Positions 1-14,750 of a stretch of 14,750 bases of DNA are shown piece after piece. How positions within the stretch are numbered: position 1 is the first letter of the stretch; each line of letters starts with the position of its first letter. The translations under genes were made by a program, and so were the position numbers. The notes below the pieces were generated by a model. That model ran no database searches. It saw only the letters and a list, made by a program, of their open reading frames with translations, and was not told where the DNA came from. Source of the stretch: Candidatus Nanopusillus sp. (GTDB taxonomy: Archaea; Nanobdellota; Nanobdellia; Nanobdellales; Nanobdellaceae); assembly GCA_046536775.1 (NCBI GenBank), contig JAWDMD010000013.1, positions 1-14,750 on the forward strand, written 5' to 3'.

Positions 1-59
1 TTTCTTCATTTTCATATAAAAAATAAAATCTTTTATAAAACAAAAAATAAAGAAATATT

Positions 60-665
60 ATGGAATTAAAAGATGCTATAAGAAATAGAAGAAGTATTAG
101 AAAATATTTAGATGAAGATATATCATATGAAGATATAATAGAAATATTATCTCTAGGGATATTGGCACCAATAGCCGGAAATATATCACATTATTATTTT
201 ATCATTGTAAAAGATCCTGAAAAAATAAGAAAAATCTCTGAATTTGCAGGTCAGGATTTTATAAAAGATGCAAATACATTAGTAGCTATCATATCTGATG
301 ATAATAAATTAAAATCATTATATGGAGAAAGAGGACAAATATTTGCAATACAAGATACTGCAGCAATAGCGGAAAATATATTATTAGCTGCTACTGATAA
401 AAATATTGGAACCTGTTGGATAGGTTCTTTTGATGAAGAAAGTATAAAAAATCTATTAGAAATACCAAAAGAGAAGAATATACATATTATAATTGCAATG
501 GGATATCCAGATGAAAAACCAAAAGAATCTATTAAACCAAATTTATATGATATAATATCATTTGAGAAGTGGGGAAACAAAGTATATAAACCACAATTTT
601 ATCCTTTGTTTAAAAATATAAAAGGTATAACAGATTATTTTAAGAGAGTATTTGAAAAAATATAA
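60..665 (+). CDS. Nitroreductase-family flavin oxidoreductase
   Basis: Complete 201-aa ORF. N-terminal RRSIRKY and central IGTCWIG segments fit the nitroreductase-fold family pattern (recalled, not searched). Stop TAA at 663-665 directly abuts the stop of the convergent gene. Confidence 0.8.
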   Translation: MELKDAIRNRRSIRKYLDEDISYEDIIEILSLGILAPIAGNISHYYFIIVKDPEKIRKISEFAGQDFIKDANTLVAIISDDNKLKSLYGERGQIFAIQDTAAIAENILLAATDKNIGTCWIGSFDEESIKNLLEIPKEKNIHIIIAMGYPDEKPKESIKPNLYDIISFEKWGNKVYKPQFYPLFKNIKGITDYFKRVFEKI

Positions 666-1502
666 CTATATTATTAATTTCTTTTCTACCAAACTTTGTT
701 GCGCTGGTTTTAATTTTGGTAATAATACATCAATCAATTCATCTATGAATTTTGCTAAGGATGGCGCATACAACCAAACAGCAACATCCATTGAAGATGG
801 AACCTCTTTTTCATCAAATAGCATCATTAATATTTCTTCAGAATCTATTGTAACAATTCTTCCTCTATAATCTCCAGAATCATATATTTCAACTACACTC
901 ATCAATTCTTGAACATATTTTGCATTTCCCTCATCTATTGGTGTTATAATCCTAACTGGTATCTGTCTTTCTCTTAATTCATAAAATATTGGCTTTAATG
1001 CAATCGCATCCCTAACAAACGTCAATTGGGTTGTAACAATATTTACGTGCTTTTGGGCTTCTTTTAACATTGATTCTAGATGACTTATTATATTTTGTTG
1101 TCCTCTTATTGCTCCGGATTTTTCAGAAACATCTATTGATCCGGCACCAGATTTATGCAATGTATCTAATTCTTTTATTAAATCAGAAGTTTTTACTTTT
1201 TCTAATTCATTAACTCTTCTCGACATGGTTTCTTCATATCTTCTTTTTACTCTTTCAACAACTTCTGTAGGTGGAACAGCAAGATATTTTATTGGTTTAC
1301 CAAGTTTCATGATTACAAATCCTTTCTTTTCCAATGATTCTAAAACATCATATGCCCTTGACCTTGGTATATCTGCAATATCTGCCAATTCTCCAGCAGT
1401 TGCAATACCTTTCATTAATAAGGCCAACCATATCCTAGCTTCATAAGTATTTAAATTAAAAGATGACTTTATCTTCTCTACAAGCTCTTCACTTATAACC
1501 AT
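666..1502 (-). CDS. TrmB-family transcriptional regulator (N-terminal winged helix plus C-terminal effector-type domain)
   Basis: 278-aa ORF. The N-terminus LNTYEARIWLALLMKGIATAGELADIADIPRSRAYDVLESLEKKGFV matches the TrmB HTH pattern. Stop codon (TAG, complement of 666-668) touches the nitroreductase stop. Confidence 0.75.
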   Translation of the reverse strand: MVISEELVEKIKSSFNLNTYEARIWLALLMKGIATAGELADIADIPRSRAYDVLESLEKKGFVIMKLGKPIKYLAVPPTEVVERVKRRYEETMSRRVNELEKVKTSDLIKELDTLHKSGAGSIDVSEKSGAIRGQQNIISHLESMLKEAQKHVNIVTTQLTFVRDAIALKPIFYELRERQIPVRIITPIDEGNAKYVQELMSVVEIYDSGDYRGRIVTIDSEEILMMLFDEKEVPSSMDVAVWLYAPSLAKFIDELIDVLLPKLKPAQQSLVEKKLII

Positions 1503-1537
1503 AATTTATCTATATAATAAAAAACTTAAAAATAGAA

Positions 1538-3232
1538 TTATCTTTTTTGGCTTTTATATAATTCTATCAACCTATCAATGGTATCAGCATCTTCAATAGA
1601 TTTATCAGGTCTGAGCCTAATAAACCTGGGAAACCTTAGTGCATAACCTGAAGAATATTTAGGACTTTTTTGTATTTCATCATACAATACTTCTATTACA
1701 ATTTTTGGTTTAACTTTTACATATTTTCCATTTTGTTCTTCTATAGAATCTTTTAACATTTCTGTCATTTCTTCAAAAGTTATATCATCTGGAAATTCTT
1801 TTTTCTCTTTGAATCCACTTCCAACTTCCCCAACTTCCAATAATTTTCCTGTTTCTTCATCTCTAACGGCAACTACAAAAGATGTTAGCCATCCACTTCT
1901 CTTTCCCTCCCCCCATTCAGCTCCAACTATTACAACATCTAAAGATTCTTTCACAGGTTTTAATTTAACCATATAACCAACCCTTCTCCCAGGATGATAT
2001 GGCGCATCTAATTTTTTAAACATGACTCCCTCTAAACCATTACTAATTGCCTCTTCAAAAAATCTTTGAGCTTCCTCATCTGAAGATGTTATTATACTTT
2101 CTGACAATGATATTTTATTTATATCCTGCTTTACTATTGATTCTAATATATTCCTTCTTTCTCTAAATGGTGTATTTATTAGAGATTTTTCGTCATAATA
2201 AATTATATCAAAAATTCTAACAACAACAGGTATTTCTTTAACCATTTTTTCTATATCATATTTTCTTCTAATTCTCCTTGAAATTCTCTGAAATGGCAAA
2301 TATTTTTTATTTTCTCTATCATATCCGACAATTTCTCCCTCCACTAAAAAATCCTTATCTTTTGGAAAACATTCTTTGATATATTCTATCACATCAGGAA
2401 ATTGTTTTGTTACATTTTCCAATCTCCTCGTCCATAAAGATATTTGATCTCCCTTTTTATGTATTTGAACCCTGAATCCATCATATTTATATTCAACCTG
2501 TGCGGGTCTTCCAACAACATCTAAAGCTTCCTTAGCACTTTCTGCTTTTATTGCTAGCATTACTCTAATTGGATTTCCCAATATTGGTTTTAATTTAAAT
2601 ACAACATCTTTTCCATTTTCTAAAATTTGCTTTACTAGTTCGCCAAAATCATTTAAAATCGAATATGCAATTTCTACATTTTCCGATGGTAAACCAAAAG
2701 ATACGGCTATAGAATCTATTATAATTCCTTCTCCAACCCCTATTTTCAAATCTTCTAATGTTAATCTCGCAATATATTTTGCTTCTACTGGCGATGATAA
2801 AATAAATAAATTAGCTAAATATTTAATCTTTTTATCTTGCGTTCCTTCTCCTTCCAATTCTCCTATCGTTCTAAAAGTATTATATACATCTTTTACAGTT
2901 AATTTCTTTGTAAATATTGACTTTTGCTTTCTTTCCATTACTAATTTCTCCGCAACCACCCCAAGATCTCCTGTTTTTACAAATAAACTTTCAATATAAT
3001 CTTTATCATAACCTGTAGCTAAAGATAAAGCTCTAATAGTAAATTTTTCAGCTATCCCTATATCTTTATCTTCCCAAGGATAAAAAATCATTCCTTGTAA
3101 TAACATAAATGTCTCTTTTAAAGAATCTTCATCTATTTCTTTAATAAATCTTGCCAATATCTCTGTTTTTTGATTTTTTTCAGAAATAGATTCCAATTTT
3201 CTAAATAACTCAGCCAGCTTTACAAACTCCAT
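1538..3232 (-). CDS. lig: ATP-dependent DNA ligase
   Basis: 564-aa ORF with adenylation motif I (EYKYDGFRVQIH, catalytic Lys in KYDG), EGVMFK and LKPV motifs. Length and N-terminal DNA-binding domain are typical of archaeal Lig. Confidence 0.95.
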   Translation of the reverse strand: MEFVKLAELFRKLESISEKNQKTEILARFIKEIDEDSLKETFMLLQGMIFYPWEDKDIGIAEKFTIRALSLATGYDKDYIESLFVKTGDLGVVAEKLVMERKQKSIFTKKLTVKDVYNTFRTIGELEGEGTQDKKIKYLANLFILSSPVEAKYIARLTLEDLKIGVGEGIIIDSIAVSFGLPSENVEIAYSILNDFGELVKQILENGKDVVFKLKPILGNPIRVMLAIKAESAKEALDVVGRPAQVEYKYDGFRVQIHKKGDQISLWTRRLENVTKQFPDVIEYIKECFPKDKDFLVEGEIVGYDRENKKYLPFQRISRRIRRKYDIEKMVKEIPVVVRIFDIIYYDEKSLINTPFRERRNILESIVKQDINKISLSESIITSSDEEAQRFFEEAISNGLEGVMFKKLDAPYHPGRRVGYMVKLKPVKESLDVVIVGAEWGEGKRSGWLTSFVVAVRDEETGKLLEVGEVGSGFKEKKEFPDDITFEEMTEMLKDSIEEQNGKYVKVKPKIVIEVLYDEIQKSPKYSSGYALRFPRFIRLRPDKSIEDADTIDRLIELYKSQKR

Positions 3233-3262
3233 AAAAAATATATAAAATTAAACTAAAAAAGT

Positions 3263-4348
3263 CTATTGTAGTACATCAATACCTAAATTTACATCTTTCC
3301 TTACTTTTGTTAATTCTCCAGATTCCCATTCTTCTTTCCATCTTCCTAATATATATGGACTCTTAACTCCAGATATAATGACTGTAACCTTTATCTTTCC
3401 TTTCATCTCCTCAGATTGTCTTGCACCCATTATTGTTAATGCATCTTCTCCAAGATGTTGTTTTACATATTCCATTGCTTCATTTATTTCATTCAATGTC
3501 ATATCTTGTCCACCTTCGATGTGTACTAATGCACCAGCTGCACCATTATAATCAACATCCAATAATGGTAATTCTAATGCCCTCTTTGCTGCAGTTAATG
3601 CTCTCTTTTCATCATCTGCAATTCCAATACCTACAATTGAAGCTCCGCCTACACCCAATACTGTCTTTACATCCGCGAAATCTAAATTAATATATGAGGC
3701 TTTATCAAATGTTTCTACTAAACCTTTTATCATTTGTCCTATTAGGTTATTTGCATATCCAAATGCCTGTGTAAATGGTAAATTACCAGCATATTGTAAT
3801 ATTTTGTTGTTATCAATTAATATGACATTATCAGTATACTTTCTTAATTGTGCTAAACCTTCTTCTGCTTTTTCTCTTCTTACTACACCCTCAGTATAGA
3901 AAGGCAATGTTGCAACTGCTACTACGAGTGGTACTCCAACTTCTTTCGCTACTTGTGCAATAACTGGTGCTCCTCCTGTACCAGTTCCTCCTCCCAAACC
4001 CAATAATATCCAAACCATATCTGCACCTTCCAATAATTTCCTTATATCTGATTGAGAAGATCTTGCAGCATCCATTCCTTTTGCTGGTAATCCACCAGCA
4101 CCTAATCCTCTTGTAACTTCTTTACCTAATAAAATCTTTTTATGAGACTTCACAATCTTTAAATGAGCATAGTCTGTATTTGCTGTAATTACTTCTGCGC
4201 CTTTTATATTCATCTTATATAACCAATCTGCCATGTTACTTCCAGCCCCACCTACACCCACTATCTTTATTGTTGGCAATAATTTAAACTCCTCCCCTGG
4301 CGATACTCCTATTATTTCATCTTCCATTTTACTATTAACCTCTGCCAT
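3263..4348 (-). CDS. ftsZ: Cell division GTPase FtsZ
   Basis: 361-aa ORF with GVGGAGSNM and the tubulin signature GLGGGTGTGGAPVIA. Met8 is an alternative start. Confidence 0.95.
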   Translation of the reverse strand: MAEVNSKMEDEIIGVSPGEEFKLLPTIKIVGVGGAGSNMADWLYKMNIKGAEVITANTDYAHLKIVKSHKKILLGKEVTRGLGAGGLPAKGMDAARSSQSDIRKLLEGADMVWILLGLGGGTGTGGAPVIAQVAKEVGVPLVVAVATLPFYTEGVVRREKAEEGLAQLRKYTDNVILIDNNKILQYAGNLPFTQAFGYANNLIGQMIKGLVETFDKASYINLDFADVKTVLGVGGASIVGIGIADDEKRALTAAKRALELPLLDVDYNGAAGALVHIEGGQDMTLNEINEAMEYVKQHLGEDALTIMGARQSEEMKGKIKVTVIISGVKSPYILGRWKEEWESGELTKVRKDVNLGIDVLQ

Positions 4349-4633
4349 TTATAGTTATGGAATTTTATATATTAAAAATATTTCTATAAAAAAATATCAT
4401 TTTTTGAAGATCTTAGTGAATTTTCATAAATTTAAGATAGTTTTTAACATAAAATAATAAATTATATAAATTATATAAACATCTAACAAATTTTTCTGAA
4501 TAGATAAAAAATCATGTTAAGATAATCATTAAAAGATAAATTTTTAAAAATTATATAGAGTATTGCTATTAAATAACTTATAAGATAAACAGAAAACATA
4601 AAGTTTATAAAAATTATTATAAATATTATTATT

Positions 4634-4927
4634 ATGAGGTTAGAATCTACCCTACCAATGTTTATATTACCAGCATTAATTATAGCAGCATCAATAGTAA
4701 CAACTACCCAATATTTATCAACGGATGTGATTCATATGGATTCAAATATTATAGCATATGCAGATTGTGCACAAAATATGATGAATTATGCATTTCTAGG
4801 ACAGGTTTATAATTTTTCTCAATGTTATTTGAATAGTACAAATCAAACATATGTAAATTGCTATTATAATTCAACAAACATTATATGCAATATAAATGGG
4901 ACCAATTATACTTATCCATTAGGATAA
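4634..4927 (+). CDS. Small membrane-anchored or secreted Cys/Asn/Tyr-rich protein (hypothetical)
   Basis: 97-aa ORF. Hydrophobic N-terminus (MRLESTLPMFILPALIIAASIV), then 4 Cys and 6 N-X-S/T sequons (NFS, NST, NQT, NST, NGT, NYT). No family recognised. It sits alone after a 285-nt AT-rich spacer. Confidence 0.5.
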   Translation: MRLESTLPMFILPALIIAASIVTTTQYLSTDVIHMDSNIIAYADCAQNMMNYAFLGQVYNFSQCYLNSTNQTYVNCYYNSTNIICNINGTNYTYPLG

Positions 4928-4980
4928 TTTTTGTTAATTTATAATAAAAAGTTAAAATATTTTTTTATATAAAATCTTTT

Positions 4981-6261
4981 ATGAAATATGCAAAGATAAA
5001 AACAAAGGATAATGAGGTATTTGAAGGTTATTTGGTAAATGAAACATCGGAATTTATAATAATAAAATTAAGAAATGGTTATAATATTGGGATAAAGAAT
5101 GAGGATATTTTAGAATTAAATAAAGAAGAAATAGAATCAAAATATGAAAATAGAGAATATAAAAAATTAGAAAGTAAGAATAATAAAATATCAATATTGG
5201 CTACTGGTGGAACAATATTATCGAAAATAGATTATAGAACTGGTGGAGTTCATATGTTAACTAAACCAGAAGAATTAATTGATCTTGCACCAGATCTATT
5301 AGATTATGTTGAAATTAAAAATATAGAAATACCTTTTTCAATTGCTTCAGAAGATATGCTACCAGATAATTGGATAGAAATTGGAAAAATATTAGTAAGG
5401 TTATTAAATGATGATATAAATGGAGTAACAGTATTACATGGAACTGATACAATGCATTATACATCTTCAGCGCTATCTTTTGTTGTAAAAAATTTAAATA
5501 AACCAGTTTCAATTACTGGATCTCAGAGATCTTCCGATAGACCATCTTCGGATGCTTTTTTTAATTTATTATCCTCTGCAGTGTATGATAATTCAGATAT
5601 AGCAGAAATAGCAGTTGTAATGCATGGAAGCAGTTCTGATAATTTTTCATATGCACATAGAGGAACAAAAGTTAGAAAAATGCATACAGAAAGAAGGGAC
5701 GCATTTCAATCAATAAATTCTTTACCATTAGCAAAGATATTCCCATATAATAAAGAGTTTGAAATAATTAACAATAATTATAGAAAAAGAAATAATAATA
5801 ATCCTTATTTAGATGATAAAATATGCAAAAAGGTTGCATTAATAAAGACATATCCTGGTTCAGATCCCGATATAATAAAATATTATGTAGATAAAAATTA
5901 CAGAGGAATTGTAATAGAAGGAACTGGTTTTGGACATGTACCAACAAATCCAACAGATAAAAAATATTCATGGATTGAAAATATAAAATATGGAATAGAA
6001 AAAGGTACAGTATTTGTTATGACATCCCAAACAATATTCGGAAGAACCAGTCCTTTTGTATATAGTAATGCAAGATTATTATATAATTTGGGAGTTATAT
6101 ATGCAGAAGATATGCATCCAGAGACAGCATATGTAAAATTAATGTATACTTTGGGACATACAGAAGATTATAATGAAGTTAAAAAAATATTTCTAACAAA
6201 TATTGCTGGAGAAATAAATGAAAAAAGTTCTTATGAATTCTTTAACCCTAATAAAGATTAA
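4981..6261 (+). CDS. gatD: Glutamyl-tRNA(Gln) amidotransferase subunit D
   Basis: 426-aa ORF. N-terminal small beta domain followed by an asparaginase-type domain with ILATGGTI and HGTDTMHYT motifs. Length fits archaeal GatD. Confidence 0.9.
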   Translation: MKYAKIKTKDNEVFEGYLVNETSEFIIIKLRNGYNIGIKNEDILELNKEEIESKYENREYKKLESKNNKISILATGGTILSKIDYRTGGVHMLTKPEELIDLAPDLLDYVEIKNIEIPFSIASEDMLPDNWIEIGKILVRLLNDDINGVTVLHGTDTMHYTSSALSFVVKNLNKPVSITGSQRSSDRPSSDAFFNLLSSAVYDNSDIAEIAVVMHGSSSDNFSYAHRGTKVRKMHTERRDAFQSINSLPLAKIFPYNKEFEIINNNYRKRNNNNPYLDDKICKKVALIKTYPGSDPDIIKYYVDKNYRGIVIEGTGFGHVPTNPTDKKYSWIENIKYGIEKGTVFVMTSQTIFGRTSPFVYSNARLLYNLGVIYAEDMHPETAYVKLMYTLGHTEDYNEVKKIFLTNIAGEINEKSSYEFFNPNKD

Positions 6262-6270
6262 AATTTTTTA

Positions 6271-6600
6271 TTAGTGCACAAAAGATCCTTCTTTTATGTC
6301 CCTATCAACCGTTAATAATGATAAATTACCATTTCCATCCTCTGCGGCTAGCAACATTCCTTGGGATTCTAATCCCCTAAAATTTTTTGGTTGTAGATTA
6401 TAAACAATTATTATTTTCTTATTTAATAATTCCTCCTTTTTATACCATTGTTTTATTCCAGATATAATTTGTTTTACTTCATTTCCCAAATCAACTTTTA
6501 ATATATATAATTTATCTGCGTTTGGATGATCTTGTACATCTATAACCCTTCCAACAACCAATTTTACTCTTGAGAATTCATCTATTGTTATATAATCCAT
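6271..6600 (-). CDS. Stand-alone tRNA-binding domain protein (Trbp111/CsaA/MetRS C-terminal-domain type)
   Basis: 109-aa ORF with GRVIDVQDHPNADKLYILKVDLG and GLESQGMLLAAED, the classic OB-fold tRNA_bind pattern. Confidence 0.8.
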   Translation of the reverse strand: MDYITIDEFSRVKLVVGRVIDVQDHPNADKLYILKVDLGNEVKQIISGIKQWYKKEELLNKKIIIVYNLQPKNFRGLESQGMLLAAEDGNGNLSLLTVDRDIKEGSFVH

Positions 6601-6629
6601 TTTAAAATTTTTTTATATAAACTTTATAA

Positions 6630-7571
6630 ATGGATCCTGTGAAAGATCTAAAAATAAACAAAGATATGAAAATAAGAGATTTAATCGAGCAATTTAAATA
6701 TATAGGTGGATTCCAAGGACAGGAATTATATGAAGGATATGAAATATTAAAAGAAATGCTAAATGATAAGAATACAATTAAAGTATTGAGTTTCCCTGCA
6801 GATATTATTGCAACTGGAACAAGAGGTATAATTAAGGATATTATTAAAAACAAGTTATTTGATATAGTTATTACAACAACTGGAACATTAGATCACGATA
6901 TTGCAAAATTAACAAAAGATTATTATTTAGGATATTTTGATTCCGACGATATAAAACTGAGGGAAGAAGGAATATTGAGGTTAGGAAATATTTATATACC
7001 AGAGGAAAATTATGGTATAGCAATTGAAAATACCTTAAGACCAATCTTGGATGATATATTTAAAGAATTAAAAAATAAAAATAAGAATTTAATATCTACT
7101 TATGAATTAATATTCGAAATTGGAAAAAGATTAGAAAAATTTGATAAAAAGGAAGAAAGTATAATATATTGGTCATATAAAAATAATATACCAATAATTG
7201 TACCTGGGATTACAGACGGTGCAGTTGGAACACAAATATTGATGAAAGAATATGATTATCCAGACATACAAGTATCTGTATGGGAAGATGAGAAATTTCT
7301 AGCATCAAAATTCTTTGGAGAGAAAAAAGTGGGAGCATTGATTTTAGGAGGAGGAATATCAAAACATCACACAATATGGTGGGCTCAATTTTCTGGAGGA
7401 TTGGAATATGCAGTATATATTAGTTCTGCAAATGAATTGGATGGGAGTTTATCTGGAGCAAAAACAAAAGAAGCAATAACTTGGAAAAAAATTAGAAAAA
7501 ACGCAAAGCATGTAAATATATGGGGAGATATAACAATTATATTGCCAATAATTATATCTGAATTTTTATAA
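6630..7571 (+). CDS. dys: Deoxyhypusine synthase
   Basis: 313-aa ORF with ITTTGTLDHDIAK, LRLGNIYIP and GGGISKHH segments characteristic of DHS. Met13 (6666) is a possible alternative start. Antisense ORFs 6602..6853 and 7385..7594 are shadows. Confidence 0.9.
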   Translation: MDPVKDLKINKDMKIRDLIEQFKYIGGFQGQELYEGYEILKEMLNDKNTIKVLSFPADIIATGTRGIIKDIIKNKLFDIVITTTGTLDHDIAKLTKDYYLGYFDSDDIKLREEGILRLGNIYIPEENYGIAIENTLRPILDDIFKELKNKNKNLISTYELIFEIGKRLEKFDKKEESIIYWSYKNNIPIIVPGITDGAVGTQILMKEYDYPDIQVSVWEDEKFLASKFFGEKKVGALILGGGISKHHTIWWAQFSGGLEYAVYISSANELDGSLSGAKTKEAITWKKIRKNAKHVNIWGDITIILPIIISEFL

Positions 7572-7620
7572 TCTGAATACCCTCTTTTCATCATTTTTCA
7601 GTCGACATCGATTTCTTCAT
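7572..7620 (-). ncRNA. C/D box sRNA (2'-O-methylation guide)
   Basis: The minus strand reads AUGAAGA (C, 7614-7620) / 12 nt AAUCGAUGUCGA (7602-7613) / CUGA (D', 7598-7601) / AAA / AUGAUGA (C', 7588-7594) / 12 nt AAAGAGGGUAUU (7576-7587) / CAGA (D variant, 7572-7575), 49 nt in total. Flanks 7622-7625 and 7567-7570 can form a 4-bp terminal stem. A TATA-like octamer lies 25-32 nt upstream. Confidence 0.75.
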
Positions 7621-7644
7621 ATATAATTTTATAATTCCATAAGG

Positions 7645-7652
7645 ATATATAA
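7645..7652 (-). promoter_or_regulatory. TATA-like octamer upstream of the C/D sRNA
   Basis: Minus strand TTATATAT lies 25-32 nt upstream of the C box, and the same octamer precedes tRNA-Ala. Caveat: TATA-like words are common in this AT-rich DNA. Confidence 0.35.
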
Positions 7653-7656
7653 TTAT

Positions 7657-7711
7657 TATCGCACCTCCTAATCGATGAAGGATTCCGAGTATGAGGCTGG
7701 TGATACCGCGG
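7657..7711. other. GC-rich island forming an imperfect hairpin; candidate structured RNA of unknown class
   Basis: About 29 of 52 bases are G/C by hand count, against an AT-rich background. Inner stem 7664-7674/7686-7696 has 9 of 11 positions paired, with an 11-nt loop. Outer stem 7657-7663/7698-7705 has 7 pairs including one G:U that exists only on the plus strand. Contains CACCUCC (plus) = GGAGGUG (minus) at 7662-7668. No ORF, tRNA or C/D box fit. Confidence 0.4.
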
Positions 7712-8446
7712 TTAAAAGAAAAAAGCTTTTATCTTTCCTTTTTGCCAATCATATAATATAATCCTTGAAACTCTCTTTATCCAATCATAATCTTTCTTTA
7801 TATTGTATTTTCCCCTTAATTTAATAAATAAATCTTTTATATTTTCTATATTTATATTATAATATTCTTCAAATGGTTTTTTACCTATCTTTTTATATAA
7901 ATATAAAACTGCCTTTTCAGGATATTCTAATTTATCTATATCATATGCTCCTAAAATTGATAATAAATATTTATTTTTTGTTTCAACAATACCTGGAGAA
8001 TCTATTAGATAATATTTTCTAGATAATCTAATTATTTGTAAACCTTTTGTAAATCCGGGCTTTGGAGAAGTACCTGCGCTTCTTCTTCCAACTAATATAT
8101 TTATTATTGAAGATTTTCCAGTATTCGGGTATCCAAATACTCCTATATATGCCTTTTCATATTTTTTTCCAACTTTTTTTATTGCTTCTCTTAATTTTCT
8201 ACTTCCTTTCCTATATTTTGCCGACATATATACTGTTATATACTCTTTACTAAAATCTTCTACTATTTTTTTTAAGAAACCTTTACTTACTAGATCCGAT
8301 TTATTTAAAACTAATATTAGGTCCTTATTTTTATTTTTTATATATTTTTCTATATATTTCGTTCTACATAATTTTGGAAACCTTGCATCCAATATTTCAA
8401 GCAATATATTCGACTTATTTATTAATTCTTTTATCTTAGTATCCAT
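7712..8446 (-). CDS. Circularly permuted GTPase (YlqF/RbgA-type ribosome-biogenesis GTPase family)
   Basis: G4 (NKSDL) precedes G1 (GYPNTGKSS) and G3 (DSPG), which is the permuted motif order. The track's start at 8488 is a TTG. The first ATG (Met15, 8446) gives MDTKIKELINKSNILLEILDARFP, the usual N-terminus of this family, so 8446 is preferred. Confidence 0.85.
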   Translation of the reverse strand: MDTKIKELINKSNILLEILDARFPKLCRTKYIEKYIKNKNKDLILVLNKSDLVSKGFLKKIVEDFSKEYITVYMSAKYRKGSRKLREAIKKVGKKYEKAYIGVFGYPNTGKSSIINILVGRRSAGTSPKPGFTKGLQIIRLSRKYYLIDSPGIVETKNKYLLSILGAYDIDKLEYPEKAVLYLYKKIGKKPFEEYYNINIENIKDLFIKLRGKYNIKKDYDWIKRVSRIILYDWQKGKIKAFFF

Positions 8447-8483
8447 AATATAAAATATTTTAGAAACATAAAATAAAATTTTT

Positions 8484-8499
8484 TCCAAAAACCGTTGAT
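8484..8499 (+). repeat. Direct repeat copy 1 (TCCAAAAACCGTTGAT)
   Basis: Exact 16-mer in the divergent promoter region between the GTPase gene and the small basic protein gene, 36-51 nt upstream of ATG 8535. Confidence 0.9.
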
Positions 8500-8504
8500 A
8501 TAAA

Positions 8505-8512
8505 TTTATAAA
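8505..8512 (+). promoter_or_regulatory. TATA-like box for the small basic protein gene
   Basis: TTTATAAA lies 23-30 nt upstream of ATG 8535, which would give a leaderless or very short-leader mRNA. Low specificity in AT-rich DNA. Confidence 0.3.
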
Positions 8513-8534
8513 TTAATTTTAACAATATTAATAT

Positions 8535-8729
8535 ATGGCAGCTAGAAGAAGAAAAACACTAAAAGAACTTTTATTAGAATTATTAAAAGCTCCAAAAACC
8601 GTTGATGAAGTAATAAAAGCAGTAAAATCTAAAAGACCAAGAACAAGGGTTAGAGTTATAAAAGCATTGGTATCAAGATTATTAAGGGAAGGATCAATAA
8701 AGAAGGTGGGAGATAAGTTACAAGCATAA
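8535..8729 (+). CDS. Small highly basic protein, possible mini winged-helix DNA/RNA binder (hypothetical)
   Basis: 64-aa ORF (MAARRRKTLKELLLELLKAPKTVDEVIKAVKSKRPRTRVRVIKALVSRLLREGSIKKVGDKLQA). Very Lys/Arg-rich with a three-helix-like periodicity. It is the only ORF in this gap, followed by a T-run. No family recognised. Confidence 0.6.
   Translation: MAARRRKTLKELLLELLKAPKTVDEVIKAVKSKRPRTRVRVIKALVSRLLREGSIKKVGDKLQA
8591..8606 (+). repeat. Direct repeat copy 2 (TCCAAAAACCGTTGAT)
   Basis: Exact second copy inside the small basic protein CDS (codons for A-P-K-T-V-D), 107 nt downstream of copy 1. Confidence 0.9.
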
Positions 8730-8739
8730 AAATTTAGAG

Positions 8740-8750
8740 TTTTTATTTTA
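8740..8750 (+). terminator. Oligo-T termination signal between convergent genes
   Basis: TTTTTATTTTA lies just after the 8729 stop. Archaeal termination uses T-runs, and the complementary strand of 8730-8767 also carries T-runs for the convergent AOR gene. Confidence 0.35.
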
Positions 8751-8767
8751 GTTTAAATTTTTAAAAA

Positions 8768-10672
8768 TTAAGGTAATAAGTGCTTTTCCTCTAAGATATC
8801 CACTAACCATTTTAAATCCAATTCTTCTAACTTTTCTCTTGTAGGTCTTCCATTTATCCAACCTCTTACTTTATAATACTCAGGTAGCATATCATTAATT
8901 TTTACTACATAACCTGCAGAAGGTCCTTCTTTAAATGGTTCCTCTAAAAACCTTTTTGGTAAATTATCATATTTTGAATTATCTCCAAATACTAAAATAT
9001 TATATACTCTTTCTGCATTCCATATCCTTTCCCCAATTTTTAATAATTCATTGGAACTAATATCCCATCCAGTAATTGAAGATAATTGTTCAGCATATAT
9101 ATCTTCATTCAATGCATATCTTGAAAATCTACATACAATCATACTATCAATTACTGCAGCTAAATCTTGTTCTTTTTTTATTAATTCTTCCTTTCCCTTT
9201 GTTTCAAATCTATTAATGTTATTATTTCCTAAATAAGTTGGTTCTGTAACTTCTTTAAATAACCCAAGCTGATCATAATCACCTGTATTACTTGTTGCAT
9301 ACCATAATCCATAACCTTGTGCTCCTCTAGGATCAAAACCAAACAAAGGCATTCCTCTTTTATTTATCATTGCATATTCTTCTGAATTATATTTCTTTGC
9401 GAATTCTTTTGTACCTTCTGATAGATCATCTCCAATTCCAACCCTATTTGCAATTCTATATATTAACTCAATAATTAATTCTGGATCACCCCAATTAACC
9501 TTTAATCCTTCTAATTTTTCTTTTGGTATTTTTCCTTTTTCGACTAGTTCAATAAATGTTCCAATAACGTGACCTGTTCCAATAATATCTAAACCCAATT
9601 CATTACACAAATGGTAAGCTCTTAAAACAGAAGGTAAATTATCATTATTTAAATTATATCCAAACCCCCATATACCCATATATTCTGGACCCTCTCCCTC
9701 TGTACTAAATAATTGATTATCAATTTTTGTATATTTTTTACATCCTATTGGACATCCCCAACAGATTGATTCTCTTGTCTTTTCTGGATCTAAATATTCT
9801 TTTACAATTGTCTCTCCAGATAATTTATTAAAATCTGAAAATATATTTGTTTGATAATTTTTTACAGGTATCATGCCTTTTTCTCCTAAAGCTTTTGCTA
9901 AAAATCCTGCAGTTCCATATTTTGGTAATATTATAGAAGTAATTGCTGAATTTCTTACAAATTGTGAAGATTTTAAAATAACTTCTCTAAATTTTTCTTG
10001 ATTCGCAATTTGAGGTTTTAAATTTCCTCTCACAGCAATTGCCTTTAAATTCTTACTTCCAAATACTGAAGCGATTCCACCCCTTCCAACAGCACCCTTT
10101 CCTTTATCTTCCATTACTGCTGCTATTTTAACTAACTTTTCACCTGCAGGTCCTATACTAAATATCTTAATATTCTTTATATCATCTTTTCCTACAATTG
10201 ATGATAATTCTTCTCTAATTAAATCTACAGTCTGATAAACTGTTTTTCCCCATAAATGTTTCGCATCTCTTATTTCTACTTTTCCATCATATATCCATAA
10301 ATATACAGGTCTATTTGCTTTTCCTTCTATTATTATAAAATCAAAACCTGAAAATTTTAATTCTGCACCAAATTTTCCTCCAGCATTTCCTTCATAAATT
10401 GTATTTGTTATTGGAGACTTTGTAACAATAGACCATCTTCCAGCAGTTGGAATTCCAGCAATTCCAGTTACAGGTCCTGTGGCAATAATTAATTTATTTT
10501 CAGGACTTAAAGGATCTACATTGGGTGGTACTTCCTTTATTATATAGTATGTACCAATTCCTCTTCCCCCCAACCATTTTCTCAATATATCCTCTGAAGG
10601 CAAAGGTTCTATAGAAATTTTCTCTTCGGTTAAATTTACTCTTAAAATCTTTCCCATATATCCATAAACCAT
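8768..10672 (-). CDS. aor: Tungsten-type aldehyde:ferredoxin oxidoreductase family protein
   Basis: 634-aa ORF. N-terminus YGYMGKILRVNLT and the Cys cluster motif CWGCPIGCKK (C-x2-C-x3-C) are typical of the AOR family. Exact subfamily (AOR/FOR/GAPOR-like) not resolved. Confidence 0.9.
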   Translation of the reverse strand: MVYGYMGKILRVNLTEEKISIEPLPSEDILRKWLGGRGIGTYYIIKEVPPNVDPLSPENKLIIATGPVTGIAGIPTAGRWSIVTKSPITNTIYEGNAGGKFGAELKFSGFDFIIIEGKANRPVYLWIYDGKVEIRDAKHLWGKTVYQTVDLIREELSSIVGKDDIKNIKIFSIGPAGEKLVKIAAVMEDKGKGAVGRGGIASVFGSKNLKAIAVRGNLKPQIANQEKFREVILKSSQFVRNSAITSIILPKYGTAGFLAKALGEKGMIPVKNYQTNIFSDFNKLSGETIVKEYLDPEKTRESICWGCPIGCKKYTKIDNQLFSTEGEGPEYMGIWGFGYNLNNDNLPSVLRAYHLCNELGLDIIGTGHVIGTFIELVEKGKIPKEKLEGLKVNWGDPELIIELIYRIANRVGIGDDLSEGTKEFAKKYNSEEYAMINKRGMPLFGFDPRGAQGYGLWYATSNTGDYDQLGLFKEVTEPTYLGNNNINRFETKGKEELIKKEQDLAAVIDSMIVCRFSRYALNEDIYAEQLSSITGWDISSNELLKIGERIWNAERVYNILVFGDNSKYDNLPKRFLEEPFKEGPSAGYVVKINDMLPEYYKVRGWINGRPTREKLEELDLKWLVDILEEKHLLP

Positions 10673-10745
10673 AAACTATAATTATTTTCATGCTTAAAAA
10701 TATTTAATATTTGAAAATTATATTTGATAAAATAATAGAGTTATT

Positions 10746-10950
10746 ATGAAATATATAAATAGAGAAATAGAAGAAAAATAAATTTATTGAAAAAATAATT
10801 GGAATAACTGAAAAAACTACATTATTAAGAAATATTATAAAAATCAATGAAAATAGATTATATATTGATATTTATATATATGAGTATAGAAAAAATTTTG
10901 AAGAAAATTATATAGATTTTATTAAAAATATAAACCGGAGAAAGGATTGA
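10746..10950 (+). pseudogene. Frameshifted small ORF (possible pseudogene or homopolymer error)
   Basis: ATG 10746 opens an 11-codon frame ending at TAA 10779. The +1 frame is open from 10771 to TGA 10948-10950 (59 codons) and has no ATG/GTG/TTG. Removing one A from the run 10774-10778 fuses them into a 67-aa ORF. A TATA-like AAAATTATATTT is centred about 26 nt upstream of the ATG. Confidence 0.25.
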
Positions 10951-11017
10951 TAATAACTCTAAATGAATTTAAAATAAAGAATATTTATAATACAAAAGTA
11001 TATACTATTCCGGCATA

Positions 11018-11025
11018 TTATATAT
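11018..11025 (+). promoter_or_regulatory. TATA-like octamer upstream of tRNA-Ala
   Basis: TTATATAT lies 28-35 nt upstream of tRNA position +1. Confidence 0.35.
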
Positions 11026-11052
11026 AAACTTAAAGGATATTTAGAATTTATT

Positions 11053-11124
11053 GGGCCCGTAGTCTAGTCGCAGGATGTCGGCCTGGCTAGCCGGAGATCC
11101 CGGGTTCAAATCCCGGCGGGTCCA
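11053..11124 (+). tRNA. tRNA-Ala (anticodon GGC)
   Basis: Hand-folded cloverleaf of 72 nt. Acceptor GGGCCCG/CGGGUCC with G3:U70 (the Ala identity pair), anticodon stem UCGGC/GCCGG, loop CUGGCUA, T arm CCGGG-UUCAAAU-CCCGG, no encoded CCA. Unusual D loop AGUCGCA and U37. Confidence 0.85.
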
Positions 11125-11841
11125 TTATTTACCAAATCTCCTTTCCCTTTTCCTATACCATTCAATTGCATTTATAAAATCTTCTTTTGTAATCTCTGGC
11201 CAATATTTATCTATAAAATATAACTCAGAATATGCGGCTTGATATAATAGATAATTACTTATTCTGTGTTCTCCACTTGTTCTTATTATTAAATCTGGCT
11301 CTGGATATGGAATTTCATCATCGAAATATAAATATCTCATAAATAGTGATTCATCTAAATTATTAATATCTATAATACCTCTTTTAAAATCTTCAAATAA
11401 CTTTTTAATACCATCAATTATTTCTTGCCTACTTCCATATATAACTGCCAAATTTAAATAATATTTAGAATTGTTTTTTGTTAAATCTTCTACTAATTTT
11501 ATTTCTTTTTGAATGTTATCTGGTAAAAGGTATGTCCTACCGATTATCTTTATTTTTATTTCATTTTCAATAATCCTCTTATCTTCTCTTATCATTTTTA
11601 ATTTTTCTTTTATTAATTCCAATATAGGATCTACATCTTCTTTTGGTCTTTTTATGAAATTATCATATGAAATAATAAAGATTGTAGCAACTTTTATACC
11701 AAATTCTATGCACCAATTTAAAAATTCTACAGCTTTATCAGAACCAATTTTGTATGCTTCATACACAGATAAATTATATTTTTTAGCATATCTTCTATTG
11801 CCATCTGGTATAACTGCTATATGTTTTGGAACATTATCCAT
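11125..11841 (-). CDS. uppS: cis-prenyltransferase (undecaprenyl/polyprenyl diphosphate synthase)
   Basis: 238-aa ORF with IPDGNRRYA and RTSGEHRISNYLLYQAAYSELYF motifs. The stop codon (complement of 11125-11127) directly abuts the 3' end of tRNA-Ala. Confidence 0.9.
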   Translation of the reverse strand: MDNVPKHIAVIPDGNRRYAKKYNLSVYEAYKIGSDKAVEFLNWCIEFGIKVATIFIISYDNFIKRPKEDVDPILELIKEKLKMIREDKRIIENEIKIKIIGRTYLLPDNIQKEIKLVEDLTKNNSKYYLNLAVIYGSRQEIIDGIKKLFEDFKRGIIDINNLDESLFMRYLYFDDEIPYPEPDLIIRTSGEHRISNYLLYQAAYSELYFIDKYWPEITKEDFINAIEWYRKRERRFGK

Positions 11842-11974
11842 AACTAATCATATTTAATATAATTCAAAAATTAAAATGATTTTAATTACAAAGTTAAATT
11901 TTTTATTATATTACTTATAAACAATCCAAAAATCATTATTCCCTTTTTAAATATTTACTTGTAGGATTACAAAG

Positions 11975-11982
11975 TTTAATAA
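11975..11982 (+). promoter_or_regulatory. TATA-like octamer upstream of tRNA-Gly
   Basis: TTTAATAA lies 27-34 nt upstream of tRNA +1 and is preceded by purine-rich AAAG (BRE-like). Confidence 0.35.
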
Positions 11983-12008
11983 TATTAACCATATTAAGAA
12001 TATATATT

Positions 12009-12079
12009 GCACCCGTCGTCTAGTGGCAGGATGCGGGCCTTCCAAGCCCGCGGCCCGGGTTCAAATCCCGGCGGGTGCA
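12009..12079 (+). tRNA. tRNA-Gly (anticodon UCC)
   Basis: Hand-folded cloverleaf of 71 nt. Acceptor GCACCCG/CGGGUGC, D loop AGUGGCA, anticodon stem CGGGC/GCCCG, loop CUUCCAA, 4-nt variable loop, T arm identical to tRNA-Ala, no encoded CCA. Confidence 0.95.
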
Positions 12080-12601
12080 TATATAATTTATTATTTCTTT
12101 TTCTGGATAAACTATGTATTTCCCATATTCTATATTCCCATTTCTTAGATTTTTCCTAATTTCTCTCCCACTAATAATTCTAGTACTATAAATAACTCTC
12201 AAATTAATACCATAAATTATTTTATAAAATATTCCAGATATTTTAAACATTATTAAACGATTTATATCACTAGTTGCTATTACATAATCTGTTTCGTATT
12301 TATAATAATTAATAATATCTCCAATTTTAACAAAAAGATCAACAAGATTTTTATAGTAAGTTCCATATACCTCAATATTATATTTTTCCCCATATATTAT
12401 ATCTAAACCTTTTGATATATTATCTATTGTAACATCCAACGGTATTGGATTGCTATCTAGTTTAGAATTTTCTTTTCTTACGACAATGATTTTTATATTA
12501 TTTACATTATAATTTTCTAAAATTCCTGATAGATTATTCAAATGACCAATATGAAATGGTTGAAATCTACCAATCAATAATGCTGTATATTTACCTTGCA
12601 T
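12020..12601 (-). CDS. nadM: Nicotinamide-nucleotide adenylyltransferase, archaeal type (divergent)
   Basis: 193-aa ORF with GRFQPFHIGH (the H-x-G-H nucleotidyltransferase motif in its NMNAT-specific form) and a C-terminal ISGREIR motif. The last 19 codons plus the stop (12020-12079) are antisense to tRNA-Gly. Confidence 0.75.
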   Translation of the reverse strand: MQGKYTALLIGRFQPFHIGHLNNLSGILENYNVNNIKIIVVRKENSKLDSNPIPLDVTIDNISKGLDIIYGEKYNIEVYGTYYKNLVDLFVKIGDIINYYKYETDYVIATSDINRLIMFKISGIFYKIIYGINLRVIYSTRIISGREIRKNLRNGNIEYGKYIVYPEKEIINYICTRRDLNPGRGLGRPASCH

Positions 12602-12638
12602 TATTAATTTATTAATTATAAAAGTTTACATAAAATTT

Positions 12639-13937
12639 ATGGATATTATTATAGGAAGATCATTGGATGATTTAGAAAAATATGGATTAAAAGGTTCAAT
12701 CTTCATAGGTAAAGAATATATAAAAATGGAAAATGCTTTGTCTTTAGCGAATAATGTTTATTTAGATGTAAATCTTCCACATTTAATATTAATTGCTGGA
12801 AAAAGGGGACAAGGAAAAAGTTATACATTAGCTTCAATATTTGAAAGCTTATCAGATCTTGAAAAGGATTTACTAAATAACTTCTCTGGATTAATATTTG
12901 ATACAATGGGAATATTTTGGACAATGAAATTTCCAAATTATAGAGATGCTGAATTATTGGAAAAATGGGGTTTAAAACCAAAATCAATAAAAAATTGTAG
13001 AATATTGGTTCCTAAAGGTTTGTTAGATGAATATAGAAAAATAAATATCCCCATAGATGATGTTTTTGAATTAAACCCATCAGATTTATCTGGAATCGAG
13101 TGGGTTTTAACATTTAATTTGGATCCAACATCAAATATTGCACTATATATACAAAAAATTATAAAAAGAATGAAAGAAAATAATAATGGATATTCTATAC
13201 AGGATATAATAAGTTATACAGAAAAATTGGATATAGATAGTAATATGAAAAATGCTATAACTACATACTTTGAAAATGCAGACAGTTGGGGATTATTTTC
13301 TGAAAAAGCTGAAAGTATAAAAAATTTAACAAAACCAGGTTATATAAATATATTGGATATATCCTTATATACTGCAATAACTGGTGGATGGTCAATAAAA
13401 AATCTAGTAATTGGATTAATATCTAAAAAAATATTTTACCAAAGATTGATATATAGAAAAGTAGAAGAATTAGAAGAAATATATATTTCAAAAGAAATGG
13501 GTACAAGAGAATTTCCATTAATATGGATTGCAATTGATGAAGCGCATGAAGCAATTCCAAACGATTCAATTACACCAGCAACCGAACCATTAATACAAAT
13601 AATAAGAGAAGGAAGACAACCAGGTATAACATTGGTATTAGCAACACAGCAACCGGGCAAAATGCATACAGATGTAATTACTCAAAGCGATATGGTTATA
13701 TCACATAGAGTAACTGCAGAAAGAGATTTAGAATCTTTAAATGAAATAATGAAAAACTTTACTGCCCAAGATATTGATATATATATGAACGATAACTTAC
13801 CAAAGAAAAAAGGTGCTGCTTTAATTTTAGATGATAAATCTGAAAGAATATATCCTGTTCAAATGAAACCAAGAGTTTCTTGGCATGGAGGTTCAGATCC
13901 AACTTTAATTAGAAAAAGATTATGGTTAGAGGGATAG
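12639..13937 (+). CDS. HerA/FtsK-superfamily P-loop ATPase (DUF87/COG0433-like)
   Basis: 432-aa ORF. VYLDVNLPHLILIAGKRGQGKSYT (Walker A), LIWIAIDEAHEAIP (Walker B with the EAH typical of HerA-like proteins) and LATQQPGKMHTDVITQSDMVISHRV (the TQxP...hR segment of this superfamily). Confidence 0.85.
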   Translation: MDIIIGRSLDDLEKYGLKGSIFIGKEYIKMENALSLANNVYLDVNLPHLILIAGKRGQGKSYTLASIFESLSDLEKDLLNNFSGLIFDTMGIFWTMKFPNYRDAELLEKWGLKPKSIKNCRILVPKGLLDEYRKINIPIDDVFELNPSDLSGIEWVLTFNLDPTSNIALYIQKIIKRMKENNNGYSIQDIISYTEKLDIDSNMKNAITTYFENADSWGLFSEKAESIKNLTKPGYINILDISLYTAITGGWSIKNLVIGLISKKIFYQRLIYRKVEELEEIYISKEMGTREFPLIWIAIDEAHEAIPNDSITPATEPLIQIIREGRQPGITLVLATQQPGKMHTDVITQSDMVISHRVTAERDLESLNEIMKNFTAQDIDIYMNDNLPKKKGAALILDDKSERIYPVQMKPRVSWHGGSDPTLIRKRLWLEG

Positions 13938-14750
13938 TAAAGGAAATAGAAGGTATAATTGCAATAGTAATTTTTATTTCGTTTTTAACATTCTATTTAA
14001 CAATTTATAAAGAATATATGATAAATAATATTAATAACTATGACCAAATAAATTATTATAATAGTTATATAAACAATATATTGAATTCTATTGAAATTGA
14101 ATATTATTTACTATCATTAAATGTTTCAATACCATTGTCAATGTATTATCAATGTTCGCAAAATTCTCCAATATATTATAATTTAAATAATGAATTTGTA
14201 TATAGTGATTTTTGTACATCATTTCCAATATATTATCCATTAAATATATCCTTTTTAACAAATTATTCTGGAGTATTAAATAATACAAATAATACATATT
14301 TAGATCCAAATGTTGGTATATTTTTTTATACAAATTTTTCAAATTTTAATATAAACAATAATCAGCCACAATATGTTTTAATAAATGTTTCAAATCCATC
14401 AAATCAGAATTTAGTTAATTATCCTGTATTTATAACTTCTACTGATATTTTTTATTGGTTACAGAATGATTCTAATCTATCTGTAGAAGATTTGAATGAA
14501 AATAATTATTATTTTTGCTATTTAAATAATAATTTAAATTGTAATAGTTTCAATAATAATTCTTATGGAATTTGGATTGATTTAAATATATCTCAAAATA
14601 GTTATATAATATTAAATATTTCTCCAATAAATGAAATAAATAGTTATTCAGTTGATGGAAAAGAAATATTTCCAGTATATGATAATTTTAGCTATCAAAA
14701 TTATCAACAGTTTAGTCAGTATTGGACAAATAATACTCCTATAAATATTT
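13922..14750 (+). CDS. Partial (3'-truncated by window edge) pilin-like-signal surface glycoprotein candidate
   Basis: I translated this by hand; it is absent from the ORF track because it has no stop in the window. ATG 13922 opens at least 276 codons with no stop and overlaps the ATPase gene by 16 nt. The N-terminus MVRGIVKEIEG-IIAIVIFISFLTFYLTIY is a charged segment, Gly, then a hydrophobic helix. After that come Asn/Tyr-rich sequence, 4 Cys and about 14 N-X-S/T sequons. The listed antisense ORF 14088..14342 is its shadow. Confidence 0.7.
   Translation, partial: MVRGIVKEIEGIIAIVIFISFLTFYLTIYKEYMINNINNYDQINYYNSYINNILNSIEIEYYLLSLNVSIPLSMYYQCSQNSPIYYNLNNEFVYSDFCTSFPIYYPLNISFLTNYSGVLNNTNNTYLDPNVGIFFYTNFSNFNINNNQPQYVLINVSNPSNQNLVNYPVFITSTDIFYWLQNDSNLSVEDLNENNYYFCYLNNNLNCNSFNNNSYGIWIDLNISQNSYIILNISPINEINSYSVDGKEIFPVYDNFSYQNYQQFSQYWTNNTPINI

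Follow-up and report, generated by a model that had tools for sequence, protein, structure and literature searches.

Sequence features of the locus

We analyzed a 14,750-nucleotide stretch of DNA from Candidatus Nanopusillus sp. (contig JAWDMD010000013.1, positions 1 to 14,750, referred to here as the window) and focused on the gene pair at its right-hand end, where a gene for a HerA-clade ATPase runs into a long open reading frame (ORF) that leaves the window. The window has a GC content of 25–30% and carries housekeeping genes of archaeal type, encoding DNA ligase, FtsZ, GatD, deoxyhypusine synthase, AOR, and UPP synthase. A preliminary description of this DNA had read the pair as part of an undescribed envelope or translocation apparatus. 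Our analysis instead points, with a little better than even probability, to two neighboring units: a conserved HerA-clade ATPase and, behind it, a DUF2341 surface protein of the kind found in archaeal type IV pili. The ATPase gene and its junction with the downstream gene have the following features (AF2, AlphaFold2):

12639..13937, + strand: HerA-clade P-loop ATPase, 432 residues, with no hydrophobic segment (DUF87 match, AF2 model, Foldseek)
12639..12779, + strand: short N-terminal beta domain, residues 1–47, three strands, replacing a full HAS-barrel (secondary structure of the AF2 model)
12798..12821, + strand: Walker A motif GKRGQGKS, residues 54–61 (invariant G54, K55, G57, G59, K60, and S61)
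13524..13550, + strand: Walker B strand with DEAHE, residues 296–304 (invariant W296, D300, E301, and H303)
13605..13712, + strand: HerA-type REGRQPG...TQQP...SHRV block, residues 323–358 (aligns to HerA chains 8xau and 8wiv; invariant columns)
13922..13937, + strand: 16-nt overlap between the 3′ end of the ATPase gene and the start of the downstream gene (ORF coordinates)

The ATPase belongs to the HerA clade but is not an orthodox HerA

The ORF, its motifs, and its DUF87 match bear out the earlier identification of a 432-residue ATPase with a HerA-like Walker A, DEAHE, and TQQP...SHRV. Pfam DUF87 (PF01935) scored 43.3 bits against a cut-off of 23.2 (E 5.9e-11) over residues 39–245, and weak matches were obtained for HerA_C, Zot, and FtsK. 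The Walker B motif reads IAIDEAHE (residues 297–304) and is followed by REGRQPG (323–329), TQQP (336–339), and SHRV (355–358). Among 67 ATPase homologs, GKRGQGKS, DEAHE, REGRQPG, and TQQP are all invariant. The AF2 monomer model, built from an alignment with the 67 homologs, is confident (pLDDT 90). When this model was compared with the PDB using Foldseek, the top matches were the archaeal HerA structures 9x1m and 4d2i (E 1e-21 to 1e-19, ~18% identity), with chains taken from the HerA-NurA complex of Thermococcus and from Sulfolobus. HerA entries made up almost the whole of the top 50 matches, which also contained TdpA and the C-domain of DndH. The DUF87 score, the Walker A and B motifs, the Arg/Gln block, and the HerA-like fold place the protein in the FtsK-HerA superfamily, and it presumably forms a hexameric ring.

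Within this clade the protein is not an orthodox HerA, because its HAS-barrel is incomplete, its equivalog scores are far too low, and linkage to NurA, Mre11, and Rad50 is lacking in 79 related loci. The HAS-barrel mediates NurA binding. Only 47 residues, modeled by AF2 as three strands, lie ahead of Walker A in the ATPase, and no HAS-barrel family appeared among its Pfam matches at E ≤ 1. The NCBIfam HerA equivalogs gave 30–50 bits against cut-offs of 800–970 (31 bits against 970 for NF040819; 29.5 bits against 800 for NF040937), so that the profile searches suggested in the preliminary description put the protein above the DUF87 cut-off and outside orthodox HerA. That description had also remarked on the lack of the canonical repair genes; we likewise found no nurA, mre11, or rad50 among the window ORFs and no such neighbor in the 79 related loci, whole genomes not having been searched for them. 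No VirB4/CagE family was matched in Pfam or NCBIfam. The EssC model reached 23.7 bits against 778, and the protein, with its single ATPase domain and no membrane anchor, does not qualify as a type VII-like ATPase. No transmembrane (TM) or other hydrophobic segment was predicted in it.

The downstream gene encodes a DUF2341 surface protein

The frame that opens at the ATG at 13922 has no stop up to 14749. It is whole on contig L001 from the same population, where it runs uninterrupted for 723 residues and is followed by small pilin-like genes; this longer contig upholds the downstream ORF. Its features within the window are as follows:

13922..14750, + strand: 5′ part (276 of ~723 codons) of the gene for a DUF2341-containing surface protein, predicted pilus-tip adhesin; runs off the window
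13922..14005, + strand: predicted class III (prepilin-type) signal, MVRGIVKEIEG / IIAIVIFISFLTFYLTI, a charged leader and then hydrophobic alpha-1 (FlaFind-type motif, single N-terminal TM segment)
14369..14704, + strand: DUF2341 domain, residues 150–261, including a conserved FCY...C motif (hhalign probability 97.3%, E 2e-11)

Scans of the downstream proteins against Pfam, NCBIfam, and PHROGs gave no matches, and a word-based search saw the 723-residue family in Nanopusillaceae only. The DUF2341 assignment emerged only from hhalign and from an exhaustive search with the family profile against 1.84 billion representatives. The latter returned 22 proteins, in which the matches outside the family all fell at profile positions ~150–260, and Pfam DUF2341 was present in seven of the seven such matches scanned. 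One family member, P0183, itself exceeds the Pfam DUF2341 cut-off (24.5 against 23.4).

The protein has a single N-terminal hydrophobic segment and carries a conserved FlaFind-type motif (E10-G11/I-I-A-I, residues 10–15) that is present in 18 of 19 family members and in 11 of 732 (1.5%) background ORFs. The class III-like signal noted in the preliminary description is retained as a motif, with the correction that cleavage is predicted after G11 and not after G4. The heavy decoration with sequons also proved to go beyond composition, with 14 N-x-S/T sites found against 7.3 ± 2.2 in shuffled sequences (p ~0.004). The protein is rich in Asn (20%) and poor in Lys plus Arg (1.4%), a composition that sets it well apart from the window's cytoplasmic proteins. 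The AF2 model of the 723-residue protein is poor (pLDDT 52) and has a long N-terminal helix (residues 2–56) followed by beta structure. These results support a real, intact, extracellular pilin-type protein. Makarova et al. (2016) predicted large DUF2341 proteins to be the pilus-tip adhesins of archaeal type IV pili; this places the long "hypothetical" ORF of the window in a known class, and a role as a pilus-tip adhesin for host contact is likely.

A separate observation concerns P0191, a metagenomic protein of 3098 residues in which a bacterial N-terminal methylation (type IV pilin) motif is combined with four or more DUF2341 repeats; DUF2341 is therefore carried on pilin-type leaders in bacteria too.

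Small pilin-like genes and type IV pilus machinery near the pair

On L001 two further genes follow the 723-residue ORF, both with 4-nt overlaps: a 106-residue gene and then one whose product has a hydrophobic segment at its N-terminus. The 106- and 146-residue proteins of this block and the 156-residue product of a convergent gene have one N-terminal TM segment each and K/R-G/S-type leaders. The strict FlaFind motif is found in only one of the small proteins (L090_92), the others having K/R-G/S-x plus one TM segment. This make-up fits minor pilins. No polytopic channel protein was found in the operon, every downstream protein having one N-terminal hydrophobic segment.

In L090, a locus from a sister clade, the big protein is followed by two small pilin-like genes, two half-size FlaJ/TadC-like genes, and a FlaI-like ATPase gene whose product scores 407 bits on the FlaI model. 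No FlaI/PilB-type ATPase or FlaJ/TadC platform lies within 10 kb of the block in Nanobdella and Nanoclepta. According to Makarova et al. (2016), pili with DUF2341 proteins combine a single ATPase with a pair of TadC-type platform genes and several minor pilins of class III, and a 2026 preprint describes the same make-up for type IV filament (TFF) system 1 and subsystem 4A, Nanoarchaeota included. Nanoarchaeota have been reported to possess two type IV pilus (T4P) systems, and filaments have been reported on Nanobdella cells. In L013 (10909–12469), archaellum genes lie near the block: the DUF2341 gene is followed by a THEP1-like NTPase gene and then by FlaG-like and FlaF-like genes.

Conservation of the gene pair and meaning of the overlap

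The two genes overlap by 16 nt in L001, L005, L009, and L089 and by 4 nt in L013, L090, and L092. In Nanobdella and Nanoclepta the gene order is ATPase, big protein, 106 residues, 146 residues, and a convergent 156-residue gene, all amid conserved synteny. The sister-clade loci L090 and L013, whose ATPases are 67–68% identical, have an HtpX gene upstream and otherwise different flanks, and the homologous big protein still follows the ATPase. The pair is also retained in L092 (65% identity), which has a methyltransferase gene upstream and in which the DUF2341 sequence is plainly visible. The adjacency, which the preliminary description had proposed to examine across related genomes, is therefore kept in relatives with three flanking contexts. 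It is lost where ATPase identity falls to 58% or below (L091 has a radical-SAM gene downstream), and the pair is absent from all 73 other Nanoarchaeota loci.

The 16-nt overlap at 13922–13937 with an ORF leaving the window stands as first described, the coordinates agreeing. Its interpretation as a co-translated layout stands less well: the overlap itself is real and is weak evidence for coupling, since same-strand neighbors overlap in 8 of 16, 7 of 12, and 4 of 8 pairs in these genomes. The overlapping pairs include rpS19e with the 156-residue pilin-like gene, L37ae with unrelated small genes, and HtpX with the ATPase. Because about half of the same-strand neighbors overlap and some of them are functionally unrelated, the overlap alone is no sign of shared function. 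A promoter and terminator scan of this 25% GC archaeal DNA returned 26 sites against 25 expected; the models are bacterial and the scan is uninformative here.

The two genes differ in how they vary between strains. Comparison of the window with L001 gave six synonymous and no non-synonymous codon changes in the ATPase, as against 14 synonymous and 15 non-synonymous changes in the first 276 codons of the big gene. The ATPase is under strong purifying selection. The pattern in the big gene matches a reported excess of non-synonymous single-nucleotide polymorphisms in those surface proteins of Nanoarchaeota that have just one TM segment, at the N-terminus.

Distribution and neighborhoods of the ATPase

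The ATPase of the window occurs as an identical protein on JGI hot-spring metagenome contigs such as L001, and its Nanopusillus and Nanobdella orthologs are 81–94% identical, which places the organism in the Nanopusillaceae (Nanoarchaeota, DPANN). At 44–50% identity, orthologs were found in at least 588 GTDB species genomes, all of them Nanoarchaeota in the wide sense (Nanopusillaceae and Woese-, Pace-, and Parvarchaeales). Each locus returned one ATPase match except L053, from one Nanoarchaeota genome, where two paralogs of 442 and then 445 residues stand in tandem (4641–7329).

Outside the thermophilic clade, 73 ATPase loci of Woesearchaeales and Pacearchaeales type have unrelated and variable neighbors (DnaG-like, RFC-like, Trm5-like, SurA-like peptidyl-prolyl isomerase [PPIase], HtpX, SPP, and FEN1) and few tight operon partners. 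Across deep clades, RFC-like and FEN1 genes are found near the ATPase repeatedly. Of ~80 loci, three or four have TFF genes no more than 8 kb from the ATPase, which a rough estimate puts at about the chance level.

Two candidate functions taken from database matches were rejected. A defense role, to which the PADLOC mad8 and HerA matches pointed, does not suit a core gene under purifying selection with one copy per locus save for the tandem pair of L053. The PHROG terminase and Zot matches pointed to a viral packaging ATPase, which likewise does not suit a core gene under purifying selection in a housekeeping context.

Some neighbors of the ATPase orthologs recur often enough to be recorded here. 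In 11 of 79 loci, one of the first three genes downstream of the ATPase, on its strand, encodes an unannotated, conserved helical protein of ~100 residues (MAFSKSFPK...ALFEKRASH..YWKE..AKEKFD); these loci span 9 of 44 clades at 70% ATPase identity (e.g., L007 5513–5818, L016, L031, L045, and L063). The protein is the only other repeated same-strand partner of the ATPase outside the thermophilic clade, and no homolog of this Woesearchaeales protein was found in the window. An HtpX-like M48 membrane protease gene adjoins the ATPase in L090 (5881–6741), in L013 (7141–8001), and in 10 Woesearchaeales-type loci, and overlaps the ATPase start codon in L090 and L013. In 18 loci the ATPase has a membrane-anchored SurA-like PPIase as its divergent upstream neighbor, and in 20 the PPIase gene lies no more than three genes upstream. 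SPP and DsbA-like genes are also recurrent near the ATPase and, with HtpX and the PPIase, make up a secretory-protein-biogenesis theme.

Interpretation of the locus

We consider it somewhat probable that the locus consists of two units, placed head to tail and co-transcribed through genome compaction, that function independently of each other. The first would be a soluble, ring-forming HerA-clade translocase without a full HAS-barrel, whose job would most likely be to use ATP to translocate or unwind DNA in genome maintenance and would not depend on the genes behind it. The second would be the accessory set of a conventional archaeal Epd-like type IV filament (system 1 / 4A). Its first protein, a large, presumably glycosylated, fast-evolving DUF2341 protein with a prepilin signal, would probably be the tip adhesin, followed by two or three minor-pilin-like proteins. 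A prepilin peptidase would process all of these, and a FlaI/PilB-like ATPase, working on a split FlaJ/TadC platform whose genes lie elsewhere, would assemble them. The 15 non-synonymous and 14 synonymous changes of the big gene between strains are what a host-contact surface protein would be expected to show. Against this two-unit arrangement, the pair, with its overlapping stop and start, has been kept in three thermophilic lineages that differ in their upstream genes (Nanopusillaceae; L090 and L013; L092), which is what selection for co-expression would produce.

This retention of the pair also favors functional coupling, as does the fact that the DUF2341 gene is the sole repeated tight operon partner of the ATPase in the phylum sample. 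On this reading a pilus with a DUF2341 tip would capture host or environmental DNA or make cell contact, and a HerA-like hexamer would pull or process the DNA at the cytoplasmic face. Such an arrangement would resemble the Ups pili and Ced importer of Sulfolobales or the pilus-dependent transformation of Methanococcus, with the operon keeping both parts in step. Transformation of M. maripaludis requires the DUF2341 gene of the epd locus along with the epd pilus genes, and hexamers of HerA/FtsK type, such as CedB and TdtA, move DNA across or at membranes. Against coupling, the linkage of the ATPase to TFF genes in the 73 outside loci is not above the rough chance estimate, the operon has no polytopic channel and the ATPase no membrane segment, overlaps are common between unrelated genes in these genomes, and the Methanococcus transformation screen reported no HerA-like gene. 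We regard coupling as unlikely. A more specific form, to which we give somewhat less credence again, is that thermophilic Nanoarchaeales recruited the phylum-wide HAS-less HerA-like hexamer into an operon with a DUF2341 adhesin and minor pilins, to make up a contact- or pilus-dependent device for DNA uptake or scavenging; the ATPase would then be the cytoplasmic motor of T4P-dependent DNA import in an obligate symbiont.

The ATPase could also be the organism's own reduced HerA, serving the end resection of double-strand breaks with NurA, Mre11, and Rad50 encoded elsewhere. Its best structural matches are the archaeal HerA of the HerA-NurA complex, the source annotation calls the Nanobdella ortholog HerA, and the recurrent RFC-like and FEN1 genes of the deep clades are in keeping with such a role. 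The ~30–31 bits on NF040819 and NF040937, the HAS-barrel cut to ~47 residues, and 79 loci in which none of the three partner genes is near make this improbable. Less probable still, and the least supported reading, is the one advanced in the preliminary description, in which assembly or secretion of the surface proteins would be the work of the HerA-like ATPase itself, as part of a new envelope apparatus with no PilB/FlaI motor. The ATPase does stand first in the operon with its stop overlapping the next start, FtsK-type ATPases drive type VII protein secretion (the EssC/EccC matches here are weak), and SurA-like PPIase, HtpX, SPP, and DsbA-like genes recur nearby in Woesearchaeales-type loci. 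However, the downstream genes are of a known kind, DUF2341 plus minor pilins, and prepilin-type signals with DUF2341 are typical of canonical TFF systems. Nanoarchaeota are reported to have two T4P systems. In L090 the block adjoins a conventional FlaI-like ATPase and a split FlaJ/TadC platform. The ATPase has neither a TM segment nor a docking domain, a membrane channel is missing from the operon, and the gene is phylum-wide, kept in hundreds of genomes that lack such partners, with variable and unrelated neighbors in the 73 other loci and TFF linkage at about chance. The undescribed apparatus powered by a HerA-like motor is thus not borne out, and we treat the operon link as a lineage-specific lead and not as a demonstrated new apparatus.

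Cultivated Nanoarchaeota are obligate episymbionts whose host-contact structures are poorly understood, with the route of host material unsettled, and the fast evolution of the DUF2341 gene between strains makes it a candidate determinant of host specificity. The analysis also singles out a strongly conserved, uncharacterized HerA-like ATPase across the phylum. Should the operon link be functional, it would suggest the identity of the missing motor in archaeal pilus-dependent DNA uptake; if it is not, it serves as a warning that overlapping genes in ultra-compact genomes do not imply shared function.

Other features of the window and strain variation

Two tRNA genes lie close to the ends of other genes. 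A tRNA-Gly(TCC) gene (12008–12080, + strand) overlaps the 3′ end of a mechanically called ORF (12020..12601, − strand) that is nucleotidyltransferase-like and whose last residues are merely the reverse complement of the tRNA. On L001 this nucleotidyltransferase-like gene is called at only 106 residues and may be frameshifted. A tRNA-Ala(GGC) gene (11052–11125, + strand) directly adjoins the UPP synthase gene (11125..11841, − strand) at the end that holds its stop codon.

Between ftsZ and gatD, a 97-residue protein (MRLESTLPMFILPALIIAASIV...) is encoded at 4634–4927 on the + strand. It has an N-terminal hydrophobic segment, several Cys residues, and several sequons, and unannotated genes of 98 residues (Nanobdella) and 97 residues (Nanoclepta) occupy the same position; this could be a further small protein of secreted or pilin-like type. 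Strains also vary between AOR and UPP synthase, where L002 and L003 carry a 416-residue ATPase_2/DUF4143 gene (3007–4257) that is present neither in the window (~10700–11100) nor in L001.

Comparison with known systems

Among the library models, only mad8 of the MADS defense system in PADLOC, itself a short HerA-like ATPase, aligns with nearly the full length of the window's ATPase (residues 35–424, E 1e-21). This match is remote, and the ATPase described here differs in being a single-copy, phylum-wide core gene under strong purifying selection and outside any defense island. TdtA, the HerA-like DNA-donation ATPase of Thermus thermophilus, is likewise HerA-like with no obvious TM segment; it works at the membrane in DNA transfer and cooperates with the type IV pilus-based uptake of the partner cell. 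It differs in its length (~570 residues), in being bacterial, and in having its gene on a mobile element together with that of a NurA-like nuclease, whereas our ATPase is a conserved chromosomal core gene.

The Ced/Ted DNA import systems (VirB4-like CedB, VirB6-like CedA, and VirB2-like CedA1) resemble the locus in that, in a thermophilic archaeon, small hydrophobic "pilin" genes adjoin the gene for an ATPase from the HerA/VirB4 assemblage, and Ced works together with type IV (Ups) pili. Membership of the locus in Ced/Ted fails on three tested features: it has no VirB6/CedA-like polytopic channel, its small proteins have one N-terminal TM segment whereas VirB2/CedA1 have two, and its ATPase groups with HerA and not with VirB4. 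No HerA-like ATPase belongs to the predicted secretion system of Makarova et al. (2015; arCOG01314/02884), and we found no association of HerA with a pilus in the two TFF surveys or "dark matter" literature examined.

Each half of the locus has a closest relative of its own. For the ATPase this is archaeal HerA, the end-resection helicase of HerA-NurA (4d2i, 9x1m), which is its best structural match and shares its RecA-like core with the DUF87 helical insertion, the Walker A and B motifs, and the REGRxxG / TQxP / SHR block. The differences lie in the low identity (~18%), the three-stranded HAS-barrel, the context lacking NurA, Mre11, and Rad50, and the operon with surface-protein genes in one clade. 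For the downstream genes it is the Epd-like archaeal T4P (TFF system 1 / 4A). The sequences here differ in going unrecognized by the pilin models of Pfam and NCBIfam, and the small proteins fit FlaFind loosely. What they share with these pili is the large DUF2341 protein with its class III signal, the several small class III-like proteins, and, in L090, the single FlaI-like ATPase with two half-size platform proteins adjoining.

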